From Octopus vulgaris (lineage: Eukaryota): a stretch of DNA of 64,000 nucleotides. Within the stretch, counting starts at the first letter, position 1. Every line of letters starts with the position of its first letter. The position numbers and the translations under genes are program-made. The stretch lies in assembly GCA_951406725.2 (NCBI GenBank), contig OX597829.1, positions 24,676,001-24,740,000 of the forward strand. The letters are read 5' to 3'. Positions 1 through 64,000 of the stretch are shown here, one piece after another. The notes below the pieces were generated by a model. The model was given only the letters and a program-made list of their open reading frames with translations. It was not told the DNA's origin and made no database searches.

Positions 1-1097
1 ACACAAAACCACACAGATGGGTGCTTACATGTGTATGTAATATTCAAACACAAAAGTGACTATGAACTCAAAATAATAAACTTTTGGCCCACTGACAAAT
101 CCAAAATTATTACTACAGTGTTACTACATTATTTCAGTACTGCTATATTATAGCTACATTATTAGTTCAGATATTACTTTCAATTGCTGAGCAACAAACA
201 AGAAGTACTTGGCTGACCTCCAGGTAACTCTAATCCCTCCAAGATAGAAGAAACATCATAAAAATAATTGTTTCAACATAAGTCACTCTAACCATTCCCA
301 AGATACGGGAAAGAAAGAAAGAAAAAAATTTAAATAACAGTAATCTAATTTTGAGACCTTATAATTATAGGTCTGGTGTTCATCTCAATTTAAGTAGATG
401 AGATAGAAATGACATATTGGATAGTAAACTATTATATCACACTGTGGTACCTACTTACAGCTCGGTAAACTGGACTGCTGGTAGTTAAGTGTGCTGGTCA
501 CAGAGACAGTACAGTGATCTATACCACTATATCACAATTACTTAAAGTATTCTCATATGTTTCTGAAACTAGTTTGTGTTTTCCTTTTTCTCATCATCAT
601 CATGATGACATCCATGTTTCATACTGGTATGCGTTAGACAGTTCAAGGACTGCATCATGCTTCAATGTCTGCTATTGTAGGGTTTCTACAGCTGGATACT
701 CTTTTTAACACCATCCACTTTACAGAGTGTACCAGGAGCATTTTTTTTTTCTGACACTGACACTAGTTTGAATATATGTGTGTGTGCGTGTATGTGTGTT
801 TGTATGTGTATAAATGAATGTGCATGCATTTGTGCCTTAGCACTCATATATGCGTGAGTCAGAACATACAATTCTTGCAAGCACACGAGTACTTAAATGC
901 ATAAACATGCATTTGCACAGATAGGTTAACATTTTCATGAATGAATGAATATCTGAATACCTGTTGTGTGCACTCAATAACCCAGTTGTACTATCATATA
1001 TGCGTTTTGTACAAAGTTATACATACATTTAAATACCATATACTTTAGATGTTTATGTGAAACAAAAGAATAAAAAGAACTTGTAAAAACTGTTTAC

Positions 1098-1186
1098 CTG
1101 AATGGATGTTAATATCGATGATACATCGTATGTTGGACTCCATCTATTCTGAAGTATATCCAAACATATGCTACCATCAGCGTAGA
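1098..1186 (-). CDS. UBE2A: Rad6/UBE2A coding exon 4 (89 nt; [30 protein letters not shown]) containing catalytic Cys88; the gene continues past the window start
   Basis: TTTTTTTCTGCTAG acceptor and GTAAAC donor; matches Rad6 residues 82-110. Cumulative CDS is 330 nt and in frame. Confidence 0.97.
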
Positions 1187-1904
1187 CTAGCAGAAAAAAA
1201 CAAAGACAACTTTATATTGCAGTTATTAATTAATAGGTTGGTTATTTAATGAGAAAAACTGGTAAAAATCAATTTCTTTCACGCATACATAGACAATTTT
1301 ACAAAGAGGAAAAACTCTAGATGAAATCTGAAATTTCAACATACATTTTATTATGCTCAATGGAGCATGAAAGACCAAGATATATCTGTTGAAATTTGGT
1401 CTTGGAGTAGGGAGAGATGAAAACTATCTTTAATTACTATTAAATGTCTAATTATATTCATTTGTTCAATATCTGTCTTCCCATGCTGGTTCAGATTTAG
1501 ACAGAGAATTATTTCAGGTAGGATTTTGTAACCAAATGCTGAACCTATTTCCAACTTTTGCTTGTTTTTCAAGTAAAGAATTCTTTCTTTATCCTTGAGG
1601 TCTTCAAATTTGCAGCATAACTGGTTATAACATAAATAAAGAATGTTACTTACATCAAAACTGCAAGTGACAAGTGAGGAATCTAAGAACATTAACACAC
1701 ATCATCATGTACACACACACACACACACTTGGCAGGCTTCCTGCAGTCTTCATCTAACAAGTCCCCATGCAAGGCATTAATTTGGTCAACCTGGGAAGTA
1801 TTGTATAAGATACTTACCATGGTGTTGCAAGGTGAAACTGAACTAAAAGTCACGGTTATGAACCAAACTTCTTGACCAGATAGGAAAAAATAAACACCAA
1901 CAGT

Positions 1905-2322
1905 CATAGCAGTGTGGTAAGAAGCTAGCTTCCCAACCACATGGCTCTGGGTTCAGTCCAACTGCATGTCACCTTGTCACCTTCTACTATAACCTACTAT
2001 ATAAGTCTAACTGCATATCACCTTCTACTATAACCTCAGGCCAACCAAAACCTTGTGAGTGGATTTAGTACATGGAAACTGAAAGCAGCGTATTGTATGC
2101 ATATATCTATGTGTATGTCTTTGTTTGCCACCGACCACATCACTACTTGACAACCAGTGTTGATGTGTTTACACCCCTATAACTTAGCAGTTCAGCAAAA
2201 GTGACTGATAAAGTAAGTACTAGGCTTAAAAATAAGTCCTGGGGTTGATTTATTCAACTAAAACCCTTCAAGGCGGTGCTCCAACATGACCATAATCAAA
2301 TGACTGAAACAAGTAAAAGAAA
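1905..2322 (+). mobile_element. SINE family A
   Basis: Aligns by eye with 61273-61645. Confidence 0.8.
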
Positions 2323-2397
2323 GTACCTAGGTTAGGAGGTGGTGGCAAGGAAACACTGTATACATAAACATACATGTGTGTGTATACACACACACGG

Positions 2398-3230
2398 GCA
2401 GTGAAAAACTGCCCGTGTCATTTCTCTGTTCAAAAAGGGTGACAACAAGTTGCCTGTCAACTATCATCTAGTCAGTCTTACCAACTGCATTGCAAACTGA
2501 AGGAATCTTGTGTCAGAGAAACACTCTGGAATTCTCACAACCTTATCTGGCCCTCACAATTTGGATTTATCCCTAAATCCAACAGCTGTGATCAACTTAT
2601 TGAGTTTCTTGAAGACATTACCTGGATTACTGATGGTAGCTCATAGGTCGAAGTTGTTTACCTTGACTTTGCTAAAGGTTTTAATTCTGTGCCACACAAA
2701 AGACTTATGGCAAAACTCTCTGCAATAGGTGTGAAAGATGATCTTTTTAACTGGTTGGAGTTCTTCATTCTCAGCTGAAAAGAGGTAGTCACAGTTCTAG
2801 GACAGCATTCTTCACCCTGTGAGATGTTATCTGGTGTATCACAGGGATCCATTCTTGGTCCCCTTTTGTTTGTTGCATACATTAATGATATAGATGCCAA
2901 CTTAAAGAATACCACAATGCTGAAATATGCAGATGACAAAGTGGGCATGCCTACAAAGTCAGAAAACAGCACAGCTCCCATGACTTTCAGAAACATTTTT
3001 TCACACTCAGAGGTACTGAAGCATGGAACAAACTACCTGCATCCTTTGAAACTTCCATGATTCCTGAAATTCGCCAACACTACGCCTGATATTCTCCCCT
3101 CAATACGCATGCACACGTGCATTTCATGACACATACACTATTCACTTTCCTGACATTTGCACATAATTCTATGTACTATACATGCAACTTTGATTTGAGC
3201 ACTGCACACAATAATTTCATTATTATTATT
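2398..3230 (+). mobile_element. CR1/L2-clade LINE reverse-transcriptase fragment, decayed
   Basis: Frameshifted motifs YLDFAK..SVPH, SGVSQGSILGPLLF..YIND and KYADD; (ATT)n-like tail near 3220. Confidence 0.85.
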
Positions 3231-4339
3231 TTTTTTTTATATACATCTATGCATATGTCTGAGTAAGGAGGGATTGCACTAAAACCTATTGGTATCAAAT
3301 GCATTATCTATCTATCCTCTTATGCTGGCAACCATCACTCACTCTCCCTCAGATATCTCTCCATTAGCTAAACTTTACAACCATAACCACCACCACCACT
3401 ACCACCACCCAATTTCATACTGCTAACTACCACTCCCCCCACCTCTGGTCACTCATTACTGACATCCATCACTTCCTCTCTCTCTCTCTCTCACCAATGA
3501 CCATTTTTACATCTATCCATCACAATCTCTTTCCCCTTCATGCCACTACTAATTCTCTTGTTGCATCATTTCTTCACTATTTCTCCATTTCCCCTTCTTC
3601 CACACATCATCCACCATGTTTTCCTTTTCCTCCCTCTCACCTAGGTTCATCTTTATTCACACTCTTACTTCTATCCATTCAATTGGTTACACTACTGCAA
3701 GTGAATGGAGACAGCAAACAGCAAAATGGACTCCACTACAAGACAATCTCACAAATGCTGAAGTTATGATAAATAGCATACAGTGCACTCTGTAAATTGC
3801 TTGGTGCTAGGAAAGCCAGCTGTAGAAACCACGCCAAAATTAAAACAAATGGGTGAAGCATGATTCCCCAACACATCTAAGAGAGGGAGAAGTCTGAAAT
3901 AACCAATTCAAACTCAGTTATTGCCATCCAATTCAACCCAGCATGGAAAGCAAACATGAAATGATGATGAAGCACATGTATCACACAGGTATCAACACTA
4001 TATCATTACCGTCTTCATCGTTTTTTGGTGTCTGCTTTCTATGCTGGCATGGGGTAGATGGTTTGACTGAAAGTGGTAAGCTGGAGAGTTATGCCAAGTT
4101 CCAGTTTGATTTAGGATGGTTCCAAGAGCTGGATGTCCATCCTAATGCCAACCACTCAAAGAGTGTCATGGATGCTTTTATGTGCCACAACTATGATTTC
4201 ACTTGGCTTGATGAGTCTTCTCAAGTACAGCATATCACCAAAGGTCTCAGTCGCTTGTCATTGTCATTTAAAGATTATGCTTCAGTACCTCGTCCCATGT
4301 CTTCCTGGGTCTACCTCTTTCACAAGTTCCCTTCACAGT

Positions 4340-4800
4340 TCAAGATTAGAGATTGGCACTTCTTTACACAGCTGTCCTCATCCATATGTATCACAAGACC
4401 ATACTAGCACACCACATCTGATGCCTTTTATGCCCAACTTTTCTCTCAAGATGCTTACACTCTGTTGTATACGCACACTGCATTGCACATCCAGCAAAAC
4501 ATACTGGTTTCATTTCTACAAGCCTACACATGTCCTTGGCAGTCATAGCCCATGTTTCACTGCTGTGTAACATGGCTCTTTGCACACAGCCATCATACAA
4601 TCTGCCCTTCACTTTGTGAGAGAGGCTCTTAGTTATCAACAGAGGTAGGAGCCCTCTGGACTTTGCCCAGCATATTCTTATTCTAGCAGCTACACTCTCG
4701 GAGCATCCACCTCCGCTCCTGACTTGGCCAGCTAGATAATAGAAGCTGTCAATTACTTCTAGCTTTCCTCCTAACAGAGGAGGGGGCATGATCAACAGTG
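4340..4800 (-). mobile_element. RTE-clade LINE 3' ORF fragment
   Basis: ORF 4391..4795 contains LEVIDSFYYL..GGCSESVAARIR..KGRLYDGCV..MLHSSETW, typical of the RTE C-terminal region. Confidence 0.8.
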
Positions 4801-5359
4801 AATATCAGTTCCAGGTGTGTGATTGCATGTGTGTATGTAGGAAATATGAGTGGGTAAGGAAGGAGGACGTGATAAATGGGGTGTACACAAAGAAAGGATG
4901 GAGAGCAGCATTGTAATAAACCTGTATAAATGAGTAATAGAGATGGTGTGAAGTGTGGAAAAGAGCTCAATAGCAAAGGCAGAGATCCGGGGTATGTAGG
5001 AGTAGATAGGTGACTGGATGGTTTTCTCTCTATCTCTATCTCTCATATATATATATATATTGAGAAAGAGAGAAACAAAGGAGTGTCAATGGCCAATATG
5101 AGACAGTGTCCAATAGTGGTATATGATATTAAGAAGAGTAATGGAGGGATGGTTATTTAGAAGACAGGTTGTGAGGCAGCTTGAATGCAGGGATATAGAC
5201 AAAATGATATGCTTTTAAGACCTCTCTTTTGCTGGGGTGGGCAGGTCTCCTCAAACACAATGAATCACAGTCATCTCACTCCTTTGCTATCTTTTCTGTA
5301 AGCTCAACATCCTGTAATTGGTCTTCACTACTCCTACTCACACCTTCCCAGGACTCCCT

Positions 5360-9092: not shown

Positions 9093-9168
9093 TACAATAT
9101 ATATATATTAGTCGAATAAAGTTAAAATATAGCCTGGTTTTTACATCTTTTATTATGGTATTTTAACA

Positions 9169-9206
9169 AAATTAGTGCTTTCATACATAGTGTACTCATC
9201 AGATTT
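9169..9206 (-). ncRNA. Minimal type-I hammerhead motif (mirror copy, sense to the Rad6 pre-mRNA)
   Basis: Minus strand reads aaat-CTGATGA-gtaca cta tgtat-GAAA-gcac-TA-attt; stem III has one CpG-type change (gcgc to gcac). Confidence 0.6.
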
Positions 9207-9308
9207 CAAATGTATTTAACTGACAGTTGAGTTCCTGACAACTTTAGTACCTCTTAGAGCACTCCAGCCAGCTGGTTGGAGCATTCTAAGAGGTACTAAA
9301 CACATTTT

Positions 9309-9346
9309 AAATCTGACGAGTACATTATGTATGAAAGCGCTAATTT
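9309..9346 (+). ncRNA. Minimal type-I hammerhead ribozyme motif
   Basis: aaat-CTGACGA-gtaca tta tgtat-GAAA-gcgc-TA-attt: stem I aaat/attt, intact core, 5-bp stem II, palindromic stem III AGCGCT, CUA cleavage triplet. Confidence 0.7.
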
Positions 9347-10018
9347 TGTTTAAACACCATATTAAAAAACGTGAAAACCAGACTACGTCTTAACTTTATT
9401 CAACTAATGTACAGATTCACACAAATTCGAAACTATATATATATATATATATCATAAATACAGTGTACATTTAAACACATAAGAGGTGGCCATAATAGGA
9501 CATCTAACCCACTAGAAGGAGTAGTTAAAATCCAAACCACTACAGGCTAGGCCACTGGTGGTAAGAAATTTTTAAATAATTTTTCACTACCCTGAAATTT
9601 ATATATATATATATACATTACACACACATAATCATCATCATTTATATAAAATGTACACAAACAGAATTGCCCAGATGAACAGCTGTATTTAGTTAGTTAT
9701 AAATATTTGGCGTTAATATACTTATATTTTTATATTTTTGTAAATTTATGTTTTTATAATTTTATTTTAAATTAATCTGAGTAACTGATTTCCAGAGAAG
9801 CAATGTTACTAAGGCACTAATGCTCCTAGAAAGGCATGAATGCCATAGTATTTCATGTGCACAAGCTTAATATCATTAACAATGTTTGTAGTGTCAAGTC
9901 TGAAAATAAAATTTAATACAATAGACACTTAAAACTACTTTAAAACATTCTAAATTCGAACCAGTTCTTTTACTAAGTGTAACACATTCTATTTTACTGC
10001 ACCTACACACCACATTAA

Positions 10019-11905: not shown

Positions 11906-12130
11906 TGTAACTCACACAGACTGAGTTTTTAAGAATATGCCTCAAAAGGTAATTGTATTTTTAGCTGTTCTGTATGTACACAGGACTTTGAGCTCAAGTT
12001 GTATAATATTGTTTATCTGACTTGGTAAGAAATGAGCATGTTACATAGTGAACAAAAATACCAAAATGAAAATATACACTAAAAGAATGTAACATTTAAA
12101 TTATTAACGCCATAATCTGAAGATACATAC

Positions 12131-12246
12131 TATTTGGATGAAACATCTTTGATATAAATCTGACAGTAGGTGGTTTGTTGGGATATTCCTCTGTGAATTT
12201 TATTGTTAATTTGAAAGTCCCATCTTCAAATGGCGTATCATTTGGC
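12131..12246 (-). CDS. UBE2A: Rad6/UBE2A coding exon 3 (116 nt; [40 protein letters not shown])
   Basis: Lies inside ORF 12096..12281; CAG acceptor and GTATGT donor; carries the UBC-domain YPNKPP and HPN motifs. Confidence 0.97.
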
Positions 12247-13240
12247 CTGCACAATGAAAATAAAAATAAAAGAGAACACATTACAGAAAAATGATGAAAT
12301 ATTTCATTTCCAAAACTGGAAAAAAAAAATAATAAATAAATAAATATATTAAATAAAATGAAATAGAGAGGAAGGTTTTCATAAAAATGTATACATATTG
12401 TTGAGGTAAGAAATAATATCTGATATAGACACCTAGTTGAAATAAGGTTTGTGTTATTTGCCGATGAGAATTACTGCATAGCAATGATTGTAATAAGGGA
12501 ACAAAAAGGTAGGTACAAAATAAAGAATAGACAAATTGTTTACTACAAGATATAATAAGGAAGAAGGGGAGGATGTAGAGTCAGAAAATATAAAAGGAAC
12601 AGAGTTTGAAACAGGAGAGAGAAAAAAAGGCTAAAAAGGGTTACATTGACTGAAAAGCTAAACATGGCTGAAAGAAAGTTTGTATATCATGTAAATATAG
12701 TTAAAATTTTGTATAGAATTAATAGACAGTTCATTCCATTCGATGGTAGGCCGAATATATTATTTTGTTTCACTCAACAACTAGATTTTTGAGTATCTTA
12801 ATGAAAATCAGTTTCTTGTAAGTAGCTGGACCACCCCACCACCTCCTTTACCATGATGGGTATTAATCACAACAACTTCACTAGCATTTACAATGACCAG
12901 CAAAAGTAAATGTAGTATGGAAAAAAAGGCATCCAGTACAGTCTTTAAAGTGGTTAGCATTAGGAAGGGCATCCAGCTTTAGAAACAATGCCAAAATAGA
13001 CAAACTGCCAAACCAATATCAGTATGCAACACAAATGACAAACTAATGAAGTCAGAATCTAGATGAAACAAAAAAAAAAAAGAAGCATTTAATTAAAAAG
13101 AAAACTTCAAAATATCATGGGGAAGGGGGGTTGTTTATTTTTGTTATTTGAAAGTTCCTACAAACCATTTCCTCAGACAAATGAAATATTTGAAACTAGT
13201 ATTTCTTAAAAATATACTTAGTTAAAAAAACCCAAAAAAC

Positions 13241-39619: not shown

Positions 39620-40175
39620 ATACATTTATATTATTATTTACATTGGATGGATATGTGTCCTCATTTTGTTTGTTGTTAGCTGCAGGGACTTCAGCTAACA
39701 TTTTGGCTGATATTTTCTCCAGCCTTCATCAGGTATCCTAGTGAAATTTTGAACACAACGCTGAGTTCTCATTCCTAAGGTATTTTTTGATGTTATTATT
39801 TATTCAAGACACTGCCTGGAATTGAACTCAGAATCTTGGGGTTAGTAGCTTACACTCTTAACCACTACACTATATGCCCATGGGGTTAGTAACCTGTGCT
39901 CTTAACCACTACACTATGTGTCCATGGCAAACAACATAGTGGTTAAGAGTGTAAGCTACTAACCCCAAGATTCTGAGTTCAATTCCAGGCAGTGCCTTGA
40001 ATAAATAATAATAATGACATCAAAAAATACCTCAGGAATGAGAACCCAAGGTTGGGTTCAAAATTCCACCAGGATACCTGGTGAAGGCTGGAGAGTAAAT
40101 CAGCCAAAACATTGTGGTAACAACAAACAAGATGAGGACACATATCTGTCCAATGTAAATAATATAAATAATGTA
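39620..40175. mobile_element. Foldback element B: two divergent units, each a tRNA-like head plus a degenerate hammerhead
   Basis: About 39620-39867 is the reverse complement of about 39937-40175. Head: TAGTGGTTAAG (A box) ... GAGTTCAATTCC (B box). Downstream: CTG(A/G)TGA-a-GGCTG...CAGCC-aaaa(c/t). The spacer holds a ~44-nt duplication of the head. Confidence 0.75.
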
Positions 40176-56930: not shown

Positions 56931-57094
56931 ATACATACATACATATATGTAATATTTTGTATGGTAGAAGCCATATTGAACATTTACTCTAACAGTAAGA
57001 AGAAATCAAACAGGACATAGACAAGATATACATGTACATAATTTTAGAGAGAAATCTTGTATTAAAATGGCAAGAAAATATGTGTAATTTTTAC

Positions 57095-57138
57095 CTCATG
57101 AAATCCCTCATTAATCGTCTCCTCGCCGGCGTAGCCAT
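57095..57138 (-). CDS. UBE2A: Rad6/UBE2A-like E2 ubiquitin-conjugating enzyme, coding exon 1 (44 nt; MATPARRRLMRDFM-R)
   Basis: Reverse complement reads ATGGCTACGCCGGCGAGGAGACGATTAATGAGGGATTTCATGAG|GTAAAA, matching the Rad6 N-terminus MSTPARRRLMRDFKR. GT donor at 57094-57093; frame joins exon 2. Confidence 0.95.
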
Positions 57139-57764
57139 TTCTGGGGGGGAGGGGGGGCTTATCCGGAGCTTTTACTTAATTTCTGTATTTATCTTTGATA
57201 TTGTTATTGTCGTTGTTATAGTGTTTTGTCTATTTTTTTTTCCCTTTAATATTCAGTTATATATACATATATATATACACACATATATACGTATATATAT
57301 ATATTAAAAAAAAAGAAAAAATTCCTCTTTACCAAGAACGAGATTAAATCACACTTAGGAGTCTGTTTTTTTTTTAGTTGTTGTTGTTGTTTTTGTTGTT
57401 GTTGGCCTTCACTGATGCTGCTGCTGCTGCTGCTGCTGCTGATGATGCTTTTGTGCTTGTTTTTTTGTTGAGCAACGATTTTGTATTTCTTCTTCTTCTT
57501 CCACAAATGTTGGAACTTTCCTAACACCGTTTTTTTTTCTAATTTTATTTATTTATTTATATTTTTAATCTAGTTTATTTATTCCATACATATATTTGTT
57601 ATATGTACTTGTTAGTTACATATATGTATAGAGATAGATACGTATAAAGCCCTCTATATTTATTTATATATACACACATATATATATATATATATAAATG
57701 TATGTACAGACACACATACAAAGTATATGTATTACATTTATTTGTGTGTATTTATATTTTTGCA

Positions 57765-57795
<31 letters not shown>

Positions 57796-57840
57796 TATGT
57801 TTATATCAGTGTGTGTGTATGTATATGTGTTCTTGTTTTT

Positions 57841-57906
57841 ACTTTCCGTTGATGACGTAATGCATCCGGGACTTTCTTTGCACATGCACGTGACATTCAT
57901 GTGAAC
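57841..57906. promoter_or_regulatory. Candidate proximal promoter/enhancer of the Rad6 gene (CRE/ATF-like, E-box and NF-kB-like motif cluster)
   Basis: ATGACGTAA (57852-57860), GGGACTTTCT (57868-57877), CACATG (57881-57886), CACGTGAC (57887-57894) and TCATGTGA (57897-57904) fall within about 60 bp, roughly 720-770 bp upstream of the ATG, with intact CpGs in CpG-poor surroundings. Confidence 0.45.
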
Positions 57907-58433
57907 CAACCAGCCCAGACAAGTCTTTCAGTCGTTACTACCACCACTATTAGTATTGCTGCTGCTACTACTACTACTACTACTACTAATGCTGCTGCTG
58001 CTGCAGTATTACTATATTTATATTGATATGTGGTAATTGTTGTTTAACCACAGGTGAGCTCTGATTCAGCCGATCTATGATCAGAAGCGTTCCACTATCA
58101 ACAACAGCATCTTTTCCTTGCTTCCACACACCCAGGACTGCATTACAGTCCTGTTTTTAAGAAACTAGGTGTAATTTTAGATAGTTTTTGGCTATTATTT
58201 CTAGCCTGTCAAGATACTTCATGGAGGCTGTTTTTTCTTTTAATTATTTTTGTGTATGTTGCGTTGATCGCGTCGTTAAGGAGCTGTTTGTTATTAAGTC
58301 TCGTACTGGCTTTATCTAGGAGAGCGAAGAGCTTCCCGAACTCTTTGCAAAGTTGCACATTTTCCTATTACACCTGCAGGAGCAACAGAATCTCTTTAGG
58401 GATGTAATGCAGGGTGCTGTCTTCTGTTAGAAG

Positions 58434-58465
<32 letters not shown>

Positions 58466-58518
58466 CCGGACTAAACACATAAATGTGAAACAAGGTGTAA
58501 AAAAGAGTACTCAAATAC

Positions 58519-58646
58519 CAGAAAATTCAACAAAATCTGTTACTCTGAGTTTCTCGTTGTCGTTCATCAGACAGTTTTTGCTAGAAAAAACTGTCTGATG
58601 AACGGCAACGAGAAACTCAGAGTAACAGATTTTGTTGAATTTTCTG
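58519..58646. mobile_element. Foldback element C (near-perfect ~61-bp arms) with a hammerhead motif in each arm
   Basis: 58519-58579 versus 58586-58646 differ by one mismatch; centre GCTAGA; (TA)n runs nearby on both sides. Confidence 0.8.
58591..58628 (+). ncRNA. Minimal type-I hammerhead ribozyme motif (mirror copy on the minus strand at 58537-58574)
   Basis: ctgt-CTGATGA-a cg gcaa cg a-GAAAC-tcaga-GTA-acag: stem I ctgt/acag, intact core, palindromic stem III ACTC-A-GAGT, GUA triplet. Stem II is weak (2 bp plus a GCAA tetraloop). Confidence 0.7.
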
Positions 58647-58712
58647 CTGCTTTAAATAAAGTATGTATATATATTGGCTAAACTGGCAATATGACCATTC
58701 CGAAATATAACA

Positions 58713-58828
<116 letters not shown>

Positions 58829-59560
58829 AGCATCGGGCTAAATGCTCTGCGGAATTTGTTCCGGCACTTTAACCGTTTTGAGTTCAAATCCGGCGGTGTT
58901 CAACTTTACTTTGCATCACTCCGAGATTGATAAAAGGAAAAACCAGTGAAGTCTTGTGGTCAATTTAATCGATTAAATAAATACTCCTCTCTCAAAATTT
59001 CTAACCCTAAGCATGTGTTAGAAATTATTATTATTATTATTATTATTATTGTTATTACTTTAAGGTATTTAATTGTGTACTTCAAATTGTGCCAAGGTCA
59101 ACTTTGCCTCCCATCCTTCCGGATGAAATACCAGTCAAGTGCTGGGACTCCTGCCCCTTCAATATGTATCTACGTGGCTATATTAGAAATGATTTTTATC
59201 TACCGAGGTGACATAATCATTTGTACACCGGACAAATGTTTGGTGGCATTTCATCCGGCTTTACGTTCTACTTAAAATTTGAGGTCTTGTGACTGTTAGA
59301 AATATGTATGATTATTATTTGTCTTTCGTACTTGTCTTTTTTCTTTTCTTTTTTGTCACCCTCGAATCTAAACCTTCGCGTTTTTATTTTTTAATAATTT
59401 ATTTTTGTATTATCCCTGCTTCTGCGGTACTTATAGGGGAAAAAAATTAAGTTATGACCCTAAGTTCTGATTTAAAATCCCACTAAAGTAGATAATACTT
59501 TCATCCTTTCACAATCAATAAAATAAGTTACAGGCGAGCAAAGGGTCGACATAATCGATT

Positions 59561-59601
<41 letters not shown>

Positions 59602-61272
59602 CACATACACAACTTCTGCTCGAGAAATTCTTAACGTAAATATTGTTACATAAGTCGCCTTTTCGTTTCGATTTCGATAATACTACACGATATTTAAGTT
59701 TGAAGATGCTAGTTATGTCCCTTCGCTTTCACTTCTGACCGGGTTCAAACTCGTCTTCCTACGCTCCCACATATTTCTGTCTTCTGTATAATCATTATTA
59801 TTTAATGCGGTGAGTTAGCAGAACCTTCAGCCTCGAGGACAAAAATGCTTTTTGCAGCAATTTTTCCTGCTCTTTACATTACGAGTTCAAATTCTGCTGA
59901 GATCGGCTTCACCTTTCATCCTCTTGTGACCCCCAAGGATCGATAGGATAAATAAATCGACTAGCCCTCTCCCCCAAAATTAGAGACTTTACGCATTTTA
60001 AATTTTTTACTGGCTAATGAGAAACACATAAGAGATGTCAACCGTTCACTCTTCCAACATTTTGTAAGGTGTCAGGGAGCAGGGAAGAAATGGTAATCTT
60101 GTTCAAGCCGCACGTTTTGAAAACAGACTTCCTCCCACCACCGTTATAGAACGAAAGCAACGTAATATATTAAATAAAATTCGGCATACCTATACAAGTA
60201 CCCCCCTCCCCACGGCTTTGTTTCTCAATAACTTCCAAAAAAATTGATATTTTTTTAACAAATATGCTTCAAATGTTGCAGATTATTATTATATCGGAAT
60301 TTTTTGTGAAAAGATTTTTCTGAGGATGGGGAAGGGAGTTTCTGAAAATTTTAAAAGTTGTCTTTGTTTCCTCATAACTTTCAGAAGAATGGGTATTTGT
60401 TTTTGAAATTTTCTACAAATACCTTTCAGATGGTGTTGATTACGATTATATAGGAATTTAATACGAAAAATATTGGTGGACTCGCCCACATACATGACAC
60501 TCATAACAATTTTTTCCGAAATTTCAAGTTTCATATGATGTGTGTCTGTATGTTTGTGAGCTATGTAACAGTAAACAAAAATGACCACTGATACCAACAT
60601 AATGGACAAAAGAACCAGTTTTTATGTATTGATTTCAGATTTTGGTACTAAGCCAGCAATTTCGTGAGAGGGATAAGTCGATTACATTGATCCTAGTCCT
60701 TAACTGGTACTCATTTTATCAACCCAGAAAAGATGAAAGAAGACAAAGTTTACCCCAGCAGCATTTGAACGTAGAACGTAAAAATCAAAAGAAATATTGC
60801 TAGGTGCTTTGTCCAACATGGTAACAATTCTGCCAGCTCACCATCTTAACCACTCTTTATATATTAACAATTTCAAGTAATTGTGCATCTTGTAATGGTA
60901 AATAAAAACCAGTATTTCTTCTGTCGTTTATTCCATGGTCATCATTTACCCATTACATTGTAGAAACCTGACGTACATTTGTTACACCCATCAGTTACAT
61001 ATATCCATGACTGAATAAAGTGATATGGTACTAAATTCAAATATTTTGAAGTAGCCTTAATTTTGTTTTGTTTTCAAATTTATGTAGTATCATTAATATA
61101 CTATAGAGTATTACCTATCATATAACAGGTAACTTTGAAAGTATACCTCTGAGTAATATTAGAAAATATGGCATACATACCACAAATTATAATTTACTTT
61201 TATCAAATTTCTTGGCACATACAGAATGATGAAATGAACACCTATTTTCAATACTTTAAAATGAAATTAAGT

Positions 61273-62175: not shown

Positions 62176-62567
62176 TCTCTATATATATAAAGCTGAAGTT
62201 GTCTGTGTATGGCAGGTTTGGTAGCCTTCAACTAACACTATCTCTTCCGAGACCCTGCGGCGCAAGTTGACCAAAATTAAAAGTATGATAGAAGAAGGAT
62301 TGCTCTTCCTTCCGTAGAAGAAAAAATTCAAATCGGACGATGTTAACACCAAAAATTATTAACATCAAAAAGGTGCTTTTTTTCTATGAAAATCCCTATT
62401 TTTTACGATTTTTTTACTACTGTGTCGTCATTTTTCGGTGTATTTCAACCAGAAAAATGTTCACTTAAAGAGAATAACAAGCTACATAATGCAAAATTTT
62501 TACTTTTCAAAAATTCCAATTCTAAAGGGTCAAAACAAACCCAAGCAATGCCGGGCGATACTGCTAG
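62176..62567 (+). mobile_element. Non-autonomous Helitron
   Basis: A|TCTCTATATATATAAA ... AAACCCAAGCAATGCCGGGCGATACTGCTAG|T; same 3' end as 5724-6085. Confidence 0.8.
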
Positions 62568-64000
62568 TATATTATTAAAGTATAGTTTTATGGCTAGATG
62601 TTCTTCTTGTTGCTAATCTTTAGCTGTTTTTCAAGCAAGGAATATGTTATTCTTTTGAAGCTGCAATGCCAACAGACAACCCATTGACAGCAGAAATGAT
62701 GACAATGTCACTGCCTAAAGCTCAGCAATTTTAAAAAAAGCACAAATATATATACACACAAACACCTATATATACATAAATACATGCATTTATACATATG
62801 TCTGTCCATCAATGTTTTTTATTCCTTCAGCCAGTCCATCCATTCATTGATCCATACATCCACAATAGGTTTCTTTCAGTTTTTTTCTCTACCAATTCTA
62901 CATGTAAGACTTTGCTTAATCAAGTGAGAAGTAAAGTTCTTAACATCACAGCCCAGACAGTACCTATGTTAATGTATTTCCCTTAATTTTTCCTTAAATT
63001 GTTACATTCTTTACACTTGTTACAGAAGTTAAGGATAATTTGAAAACGAATTGCTTCTGTTCTCAAAAAGTGCAGCTTCAACAAGATTATTGTTAAAATA
63101 TATGCTTTTAAAAATCGTTTTATTCATTCTCACCATTTCAGATTGTTATTATGGTGTTTAGCCCAAGGTGAAACTTGGCTCACCAAATCTATGCTAAAAA
63201 GTATTCCATCTGTGACCATCCAATCTTTTTCTCTGTTGAGTAATAATCAAAGGAATGCAATTCTGCATACAAGCAGCTGAAATGGTTGTTTCTGTAAAGG
63301 ATCTTGTGAGCAATATTATTTGACAAAGTAACCCAGAGCTCAGAAAGTCACTCTGAGCCACTGTTTGTCTGCTTTGAGAGATCTCAACTCTAGTACTACA
63401 GTCATGTGATTTGAATGTTGTAGGAGGTAATCACCAGATTGGTTCTTCAAGCCAGTAGGCAAGAAACATAGGAGTAGACCAAGAACAAGACAGTTGGATA
63501 ATATCCATAACCTCAGTTGCTCATACCTGGGAATCCAACCAGAAAGTGTGATGACAGTTGCTTCTGATAGAGTCTTCCTATGGAGGTAGTACGTGAGAAT
63601 TTTACTCCCTTAACTCTTCCAGGAATAATGGACATAAAAGTTGGATGGATTGACAATGATGACAATTATTCAACAAGTCCTTTTTTTTTTTAATAAAAAA
63701 GTTAAGGTGTGATTCGAGGGAGATGTGATTGTTATTTCTGGCAGGTCAAGTGACCATAAATTCTGGTGATGGAAAGGCTATGGATTTTTAAAAAATTGAG
63801 TTACAGTGAAATGACTGAACTTCTAAGTGGTCATTCAACTTGCAAGAAATGACTACCAATTTTTTTTAAACTCATGCTTTACCTGCTAAAAGACACATTA
63901 GATGGTGAACTTTTGGAATAAAGAATTTTATCCACAAAAGAAAACATGTTTAGGAAGGGAATTTCTAAACCAGACAATTATTCTTGTATTTATAATGTTG

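Follow-up and report, generated by a model that had tools for sequence, protein, structure and literature searches.

Penelope-like elements (PLEs) of the Hydra clade carry hammerhead ribozymes and, in almost all families, insert at (TA)n (PMC8557442). In Hydra-2_aMil the motif combines helix I CTGT/ACAG, helix III ACTC-g-GAGT and a GUA site (PMC8557442, File S2). By a by-eye count of the 25 Hydra families given in that source, ACTC-N-GAGT occurs in five, with A as the loop base in Penelope-3_HM, and helix II is flanked on either side by unpaired bases in 15, of which 14 are U·U, one is U·C and none is A·A. The minimal hammerheads of metazoan PLEs have a CUGANGAH core, in which an extra unpaired base follows A9, together with a palindromic helix III; they cleave weakly in vitro as dimers and not at all as monomers, and pairs on opposite strands are already in print (PMC4209133). 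Natural hammerheads with 2-bp helices and a U·U start exist as well, A·A going unmentioned there (PMC3088659, section 8). With regard to insertion, PLEs in general show truncated copies in inverted orientation and a tail on one side only (PMC8557442, PMC3846280), and purified PLE protein, which is predicted to form a dimer, nicks and extends both strands without a need for ribozyme cleavage and begins synthesis at two internal positions, which mark the limits of the tail (PMC11167929). Metazoan retrozymes carry canonical hammerheads with loop 1–loop 2 contacts and a short helix III, in tandem units of 150–450 bp (PMC7229834).

The present study concerns a palindrome, element C, in a window of Octopus vulgaris DNA (the whole stretch that was analysed, 64,000 nucleotides of contig OX597829.1). 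A preliminary description had reported a hairpin with hammerhead motifs about 1.4 kb from a Rad6 ATG and had suggested a Penelope link. Both statements hold: 60 of 61 arm positions are complementary, each strand bears a motif, the distance is 1381 nt, and helices I and III match those of published Hydra-clade PLEs, and three relatives that share these helices have Hydra-type endonuclease ends just upstream. Our analysis makes it highly probable that element C represents the paired, 5′-truncated 3′ ends of a very-high-copy hammerhead repeat, lying head to head in a TA run and likely pasted there by Hydra-clade PLE enzymes, and that the hairpin is a likely by-product, predicted to keep the ribozyme inactive.

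Anatomy of element C and its hammerhead motifs

The features of the locus, by window position, are the following.

57094–57138, minus strand: first coding exon of the Rad6/UBE2A-type gene, a neighbour outside element C (contigs; Pfam on a later exon)
58434–58465, no strand: (TA)n run, the presumed target, at the long (tailed) end (TRF, 16 copies of TA)
58466–58518, minus strand: tail that forms the long 3′ end of the left arm, not part of the hairpin in the preliminary description (depth; tail motif)
58519–58522, minus strand: site of an internal loss of ~33 nt, with short CAG(A) repeats on either side (loose ends)
58519–58586, minus strand: left arm, 5′-truncated 12 nt upstream of helix I (family continues behind 58586)
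58570, minus strand: start of the mirror hammerhead core in the left arm
58580–58590, no strand: head-to-head junction with one shared A at 58586 (sequence; loose ends behind 58586)
58586–58661, plus strand: right arm, 5′-truncated 5 nt upstream of helix I, with a short 3′ end ~33 nt after helix I (contigs)
58591–58628, plus strand: minimal type I hammerhead motif (sequence; by-eye comparison with PMC8557442, File S2), composed of the next seven features
58591–58594, plus strand: helix I CUGU, with its partner ACAG at 58625–58628
58595–58601, plus strand: CUGAUGA core
58602, plus strand: unpaired A before helix II
58603–58610, plus strand: helix II, 2 bp, CG-GCAA-CG
58611, plus strand: unpaired A, then GAA at 58612–58614
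58615–58623, plus strand: helix III ACUC-A-GAGU, 4 bp with a 1-nt loop
58624, plus strand: A17, with the predicted cut site after GUA 58622–58624
58662–58808, no strand: TA-rich right flank, with a short TA stretch at 58662–58674 and (AT)48 at 58713–58808 (sequence; TRF)

The arms, 58519–58579 and 58586–58646, enclose a 6-nt loop (58580–58585). Their sole mismatch (58560 T, 58605 G) turns the helix II loop from GCAA to ACAA in the left arm, as the preliminary description had seen. The computed folding energy is −102.1 kcal/mol for the RNA hairpin (z −23.7; none of 200 shuffles equally stable) and −69.7/−67.6 kcal/mol for the DNA hairpin. A type I hammerhead descriptor matches at five positions in the 64-kb window, two of them in element C, two in element A (below) and one at 60320, compared with a mean of 0.01 and a maximum of 1 in 100 block shuffles of the window. 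The core (C3 U4 G5 A6 N7 G8 A9, G12 A13 A14, A15.1–U16.1 and H17) is complete in both arms, which bears out at the level of sequence the proposed hammerhead reading with a predicted cut after 58624, and ACUC-A-GAGU is indeed a palindromic, dimer-type helix III like those of the PLE minimal hammerheads. Where a paired 10.1–11.1 (usually G–C) and a stable helix II are expected, element C has A·A and then 2 bp. No Rfam family matched element C at gathering score, and the 52 Rfam matches up to E 10 held no hammerhead family, the top rows being generic, sub-threshold microRNA hairpins; a microRNA precursor was rejected on this lack of a match at gathering score. The fifth descriptor match, at 60320–60360 (CTGAGGA...GAAA), lies in AT-rich sequence with G–U-rich helices and is probably a chance or decayed one.

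Element C exceeds its hairpin: it extends over ~58466–58661, is inserted in (TA)n with TA runs as its bounds, and has a tail at one end only. On the left, summed depth in the bin 58441–58497 is 1.5–3.3×10^5, against 5.5–21 on unique flank. In all four DNA runs, the loose ends behind 58521/58522 equal the reverse complement of 58647–58661 plus the loose end behind 58661; about 33 nt have therefore been lost from the left arm, and the outer edge of the hairpin is a deletion breakpoint rather than an element boundary. On the right, 16 contigs of run X4 fit to 58674 and then pass into TA, others continuing behind 58661. The two 3′ ends, short at 58661 and long at ~58466, thus differ in length by ~70 nt. 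Family sequence continues behind 58586, which identifies the left arm as 5′-truncated there, and since truncation falls 12 nt (left arm) and 5 nt (right arm) before helix I, the element is a stub without an ORF. The gap between the two helix I starts is 16 nt. A MITE or foldback DNA transposon was rejected, because outer ends unequal by ~70 nt and variable junctions leave no fixed ends or centre. There is no second copy or tandem monomer of element C in the window, and 57000–60000 holds only microsatellites by TRF.

The closest described systems are Hydra-clade PLEs (Hydra-2_aMil, Hydra-1/2_Ajap and Penelope-3_HM; PMC8557442). Element C has helices I and III of the same type, the GUA site of Hydra-2_aMil, a (TA)n target and a motif ~100 nt from the 3′ end; in a by-eye comparison with 25 families it also has the Hydra-type architecture of a 4-bp helix III, a 1-nt loop and unpaired bases beside helix II. 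The inverted 5′-truncated copy, joined head to head in element C, is noted for Penelope-13_HM (PMC8557442). Element C departs from these families in helix II, which is at least 3 bp and without A·A in the Hydra-clade table but 2 bp and A·A-flanked here, and in its U4>C core variant, which forms a large subfamily in the element C family, unlike the Hydra-clade relatives; the published octopus Hydra-1_oBim has yet another hammerhead (PMC8557442). Its tail is ~70 nt, versus the 30–40 nt published for PLEs. With the PLE minimal hammerheads it shares the CUGANGAH core, a palindromic 15.2–16.2 region suited to dimers and a short helix I, whereas it lacks their conserved G10.1–C11.1 pair and their helix II of 6–8 bp, and its motifs are spaced 16 nt apart instead of the reported ~100–700 bp (PMC4209133). 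Inverted pLTR insertions (PMC3846280) and PAc of Anolis (PMC11167929) resemble element C in their head-to-head junctions, one-sided tails, microhomology junctions with deletions, AT-rich targets and two reverse transcription start sites; element C differs from the pLTR insertions as a 200-bp stub without an ORF, the target site duplication of which is unreadable inside TA runs. Non-LTR retrozymes share with it a non-coding sequence at the locus, a type I hammerhead and high copy number, but element C is inverted rather than direct and has no tandem monomers and neither the canonical helix sizes nor the loop contacts (PMC7229834). Elements of this kind are already in print; neither the tables examined nor the literature searched yielded a family in which helix II is 2 bp and flanked by A·A. 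Variants of dimeric PLE hammerheads were reportedly described in 2017, and that of element C may already be among them. A search for the family motifs in supplementary files of PMC8557442, PMC4209133 and PMC13282606 gave no match, with the caveat that FASTA line breaks can hide one. Loop 2 of Penelope-2_NV, acggcaacgt, is identical to the T variant of the whole helix II region of the element C family (PMC8557442, File S2), a likeness that may be due to chance or may hint that the short helix II arose through loss of a basal stem.

An abundant family and its Hydra-type relatives

Read contigs place element C in a very abundant family. In four of four DNA runs (three organism codes), summed contig depth over 58441–58725 was 1.2×10^5–1.5×10^6, against 5.5–21 for the unique flank; summed depth is not a copy number and is taken here only as of the order of 10^4 times single-copy depth, and similar copies likely number more than 10^4. 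In organism codes B and C the flank contigs stop at 58424. No ORF was seen in the family, the loose ends of which extend at most 30 nt. Among the 15 joints listed out of 35, 14 unite left and right arm at varied points, as expected for other head-to-head family copies, although with sides of 22–29 letters these joints are weak evidence. The loop change GCAA>ACAA is private to the left arm (C at 58560 in 87–99.7% of family depth). The family consensus at the base of stem II, a check that the preliminary description had itself proposed, gives A58611 as the commonest letter in four runs (43–72% of depth, with G at 18–38% and T at 9–19%), and no variant of A58602 is listed; A·A beside helix II is therefore the usual form of the family, and neither a mark of decay nor the unusual feature that had been noted. 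Only U4 (>C, 18–48% at 58596) and N7 vary in the core at 5% of family depth or more, counts which leave out contigs below 80% identity and so are biased toward conservation. The U4>C form (CCGAUGA, at 58596/58569), with its large family share, may be a tolerated core variant or may mark an inactive yet successful subfamily.

Two further palindromes in the window, elements A and B, have the same head-to-head geometry. Element A (9099–9416) belongs to another family and has TA runs outside; its hammerheads at 9202 (minus) and 9313 (plus) have a 5-bp helix II, helix III AGCGCU/AGCACU and a CUA cut. Element B (39621–40175) is longer and has decayed hammerhead cores at 39732 (minus) and ~40078 (plus), with the core sequence CTGATGA A GGCTG...CAGCC. 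Pfam searches of 15 of the 46 window ORFs of at least 90 aa found no GIY-YIG domain; they found UQ_con, an RVT_1 fragment (2779–3060) and a weak DUF match. A further repeat, 62180–62575, which begins in TA and has a short GC-rich stretch and CTAG at its end, has a summed depth of 700–5000 in three putative RNA runs against 14–15 in run X12, the counts of which are incomplete; presumably it is Helitron-like.

The strict family pattern had no match in metagenome and viral contigs. A relaxed pattern, with helices I and III fixed, had none in viral contigs and matched at least 123 loci elsewhere, at least 120 in metagenomes and three in one MAG; wide flanks were taken for 80 of the metagenome loci. 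As these relatives were chosen by shared helices I and III, the helix match is not independent evidence, and the helix II of element C is absent from all 142 exact relaxed-pattern matches listed. Most relatives listed are of the Hydra-2_aMil type, so their source is probably animal host DNA. An ORF ending ELISKCRHENKFYL, which is the end of the Hydra endonuclease in the alignment of Fig. S7 of PMC8557442, stops 98–154 nt upstream of the motif in three relatives (L001, L023 and L121), of which L001 also shares the helix III ACTC-A-GAGT with element C; Pfam searches of these three ORF fragments gave no GIY-YIG match. Three loci inside the bacterial MAG (L121–L123) are animal-type Penelope-like sequences and likely reflect host contamination; a second ORF in L121 (2937–3479) is a GIY-YIG one (Pfam E 1.6e-6).

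The geometry of element C recurs among these relatives. Of the dual-motif loci among the matches listed, 26 of 27 are head to head, and in 25 of those 26 the gap between the helix I starts is −1 to 48 nt, a distribution biased by short-read assembly, which favours short inverted arms. After three duplicate loci had been merged, the 23 pairs among the matches listed comprised 18 with one long and one short 3′ end, one short/short, one long/long and three cut by contig ends, such that mixed ends occur in 18 of the 20 decidable pairs listed (p = 2×10^-4 against 0.5). One locus, L020, has a long perfect mirror around the junction and short/short ends, and is possibly an assembly fold-back. Among the 62 single-motif loci listed that have upstream room, 12 have a partial inverted partner, and in none of the 12 does this partner have its 5′ end at the cleavage site. 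Two further comparisons were set aside: membership of both arms in the same subfamily (19 of 20 listed pairs) was dropped, since subfamily tracks the source data set, and the difference in mean distance per 65 nt, 1.75 within pairs and 2.35 between loci, is too slight to serve as evidence.

The tail of element C gave mixed results in comparison with those of the relatives. A profile of 46 relative tails found no match on it, the best window scoring 3.9 bits against 2.5–6.7 in 20 shuffles. A 12-nt tail motif of the Hydra-type relatives, picked by eye afterwards, matches at 58518, one of 19 matches in the window. Its offset of 18 nt, with the ~33 nt deleted, amounts to ~51 nt, the modal offset in the relatives (28 of 48 listed); the chance of this post hoc match is ~0.002 for an 11-nt slot.

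Proposed origin of the two arms and predicted masking of the ribozyme

Collectively, these observations suggest the following model of insertion. A GIY-YIG endonuclease would cut both strands within a TA run, and each target 3′ end would prime reverse transcription on uncleaved element RNA, from a proximal start site for the short end (58661) and a distal one for the long end (~58466). Both cDNAs would stop just past the ribozyme and be joined by minimal microhomology at the 1-nt overlap (58586). The left arm later acquired its deletion and point change. The model agrees with the in vitro behaviour of purified PLE protein described above (PMC11167929). The motif itself would be inherited from the parent element and would there show weak cleavage, either as a dimer or when aided by the protein of the element. 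Since both arms span the whole ribozyme, the template would have been uncut, or religated. A published alternative for inverted copies is self-priming on antisense RNA (PMC3846280), which may also apply here but does not by itself predict the pairing of short with long ends; for element C we infer double priming. A wider proposition, possible although we hold it rather doubtful, is that a dimeric PLE enzyme left the short/long rule as its footprint, by priming one cDNA from each end of a single break at its two RNA start sites, on RNA uncut by the hammerhead. With its 2-bp, A·A-flanked helix II, the motif of this family would also rank among the smallest hammerheads in nature, and would depend for its activity on dimer formation or on the protein of the element.

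In its present setting the ribozyme is predicted not to cut. The motifs lie on opposite strands and point outward; one RNA therefore holds one ribozyme and its antisense, and in read-through RNA the antisense arm is made first. The hammerhead-compatible ensemble of element C lies 72–74 kcal/mol above the hairpin ensemble in the fold computation. In a model without tertiary terms, the hammerhead fold of an isolated arm as a monomer has P ~1e-4 to 1e-7, and the double-hammerhead dimer has −12.4 kcal/mol against a cofold minimum of −15.2 kcal/mol. The 64-kb window holds no same-strand partner for a cis dimer. Only a transcript that starts inside the 16-nt centre could free a motif. The preliminary description had ranked this palindrome as the best-preserved candidate for activity, a ranking that these predictions reverse, as a closer match between the arms means better masking.

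Arm divergence in element C is 1 of 61 (95% CI 0.04–8.8%), so that, of the window's three palindromes, it is the youngest, arm identity being 101/120 (84%) in element A and 221/248 (89%) in element B. Its age would be roughly 2 My (range ~0.1–12) if the calibration of PMC13282606, in which a distance of 0.09 equals 25 My, applies. The arms thus fit a recent insertion, one of the two causes that had been offered for their identity; the other, gene conversion, is not needed, since a single insertion would produce the two arms together.

Other readings, the Rad6 neighbour and significance

A different parent would leave the geometry and the masking unchanged. Element C may derive from a non-autonomous, non-coding hammerhead repeat, retrozyme-like or consisting of a pLTR only, that PLE enzymes moved in trans, a reading that would account for the very high depth and the lack of any ORF seen and that gains from a 2026 preprint deriving animal retrozymes from PLE pLTRs (bioRxiv 10.64898/2026.07.22.740005). 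We nevertheless regard it as unlikely: the tandem monomer is absent at the locus, a 4-bp helix III with a 2-bp helix II departs from the canonical retrozyme hammerheads (PMC7229834), and Hydra endonuclease ends precede three of the relatives that share helices I and III. A fold-back error of the assembly, or a local duplication that later inverted one copy, is a hardly credible source of the hairpin, even though no contig spans the whole of element C. The arms are not mirror images, differing in both 5′ truncation points and 3′ ends; the right arm keeps 15 nt that the left has lost, all of which match family sequence; and the geometry recurs in 23 distinct relative loci among the matches listed.

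A role for element C in regulating Rad6, whether by co-option or simply by its presence, would have to act through a promoter cruciform or through a long dsRNA hairpin in an upstream transcript that serves as a substrate for editing or small RNAs. Rad6/UBE2 has its ATG at minus-strand position 57138 (MATPARRRLMRDFMR), and a later exon of the gene gives a UQ_con match in Pfam. In two putative RNA runs the exon 57094–57250 continues into a further exon, and in a third a 667-nt contig covers it; the 5′ UTR extends to at least 57250. At least 45 kb of the window are taken up by this minus-strand gene (12096–12470 to 57094–57138), and element B and most other repeats of the window fall in its introns. 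About 700 nt upstream of the ATG, at 57853–57894, are the motifs TGACGTAA and CACGTGAC, which we take to be CRE- and E-box-like, and this stretch is a candidate core promoter of Rad6, ~570 nt from element C. A bacterial promoter scan gave chance-level results and is irrelevant here. In favour of a regulatory role are the position of element C 1.3–1.5 kb from the ATG, the computed stability of its DNA hairpin, and low-depth contigs of the putative RNA runs over 57841–58424, which in the left flank at 58032–58424 reach a depth of 2.5–8.8 against 42–205 on the exon; that these runs show no cover on the right flank carries no weight either way. Such a role is nonetheless very improbable. Element C is one of likely more than 10^4 similar copies, with three such palindromes in this 64-kb window alone, and a deletion and a substitution have accrued in its left arm; that the runs are RNA is itself a guess, and no listed contig bridges the element. 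TA runs can extrude cruciforms, and those flanking element C could do so as well. The cruciform potential that had been noted near the promoter is thus physically plausible from the predicted fold, and nothing was found to link it to the control of Rad6.

Element C, as the insertion by-product favoured here, most likely amounts to ordinary genomic debris rather than to an active Rad6 switch, and as one of many transposon stubs the locus itself matters little. It carries a caution, that perfect ribozyme-bearing palindromes near promoters in the O. vulgaris genome are usually insertion by-products, and is of modest use in two ways. It points to a Hydra-like family that is abundant, has a helix II reduced to an unusual degree and includes a U4>C subfamily. 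The asymmetry of the two ends bears, in addition, on the manner in which PLEs produce inverted insertions, and is testable with the existing in vitro PLE system. If the proposed footprint of a dimeric enzyme were true, head-to-head stubs would be the default product of PLE integration.
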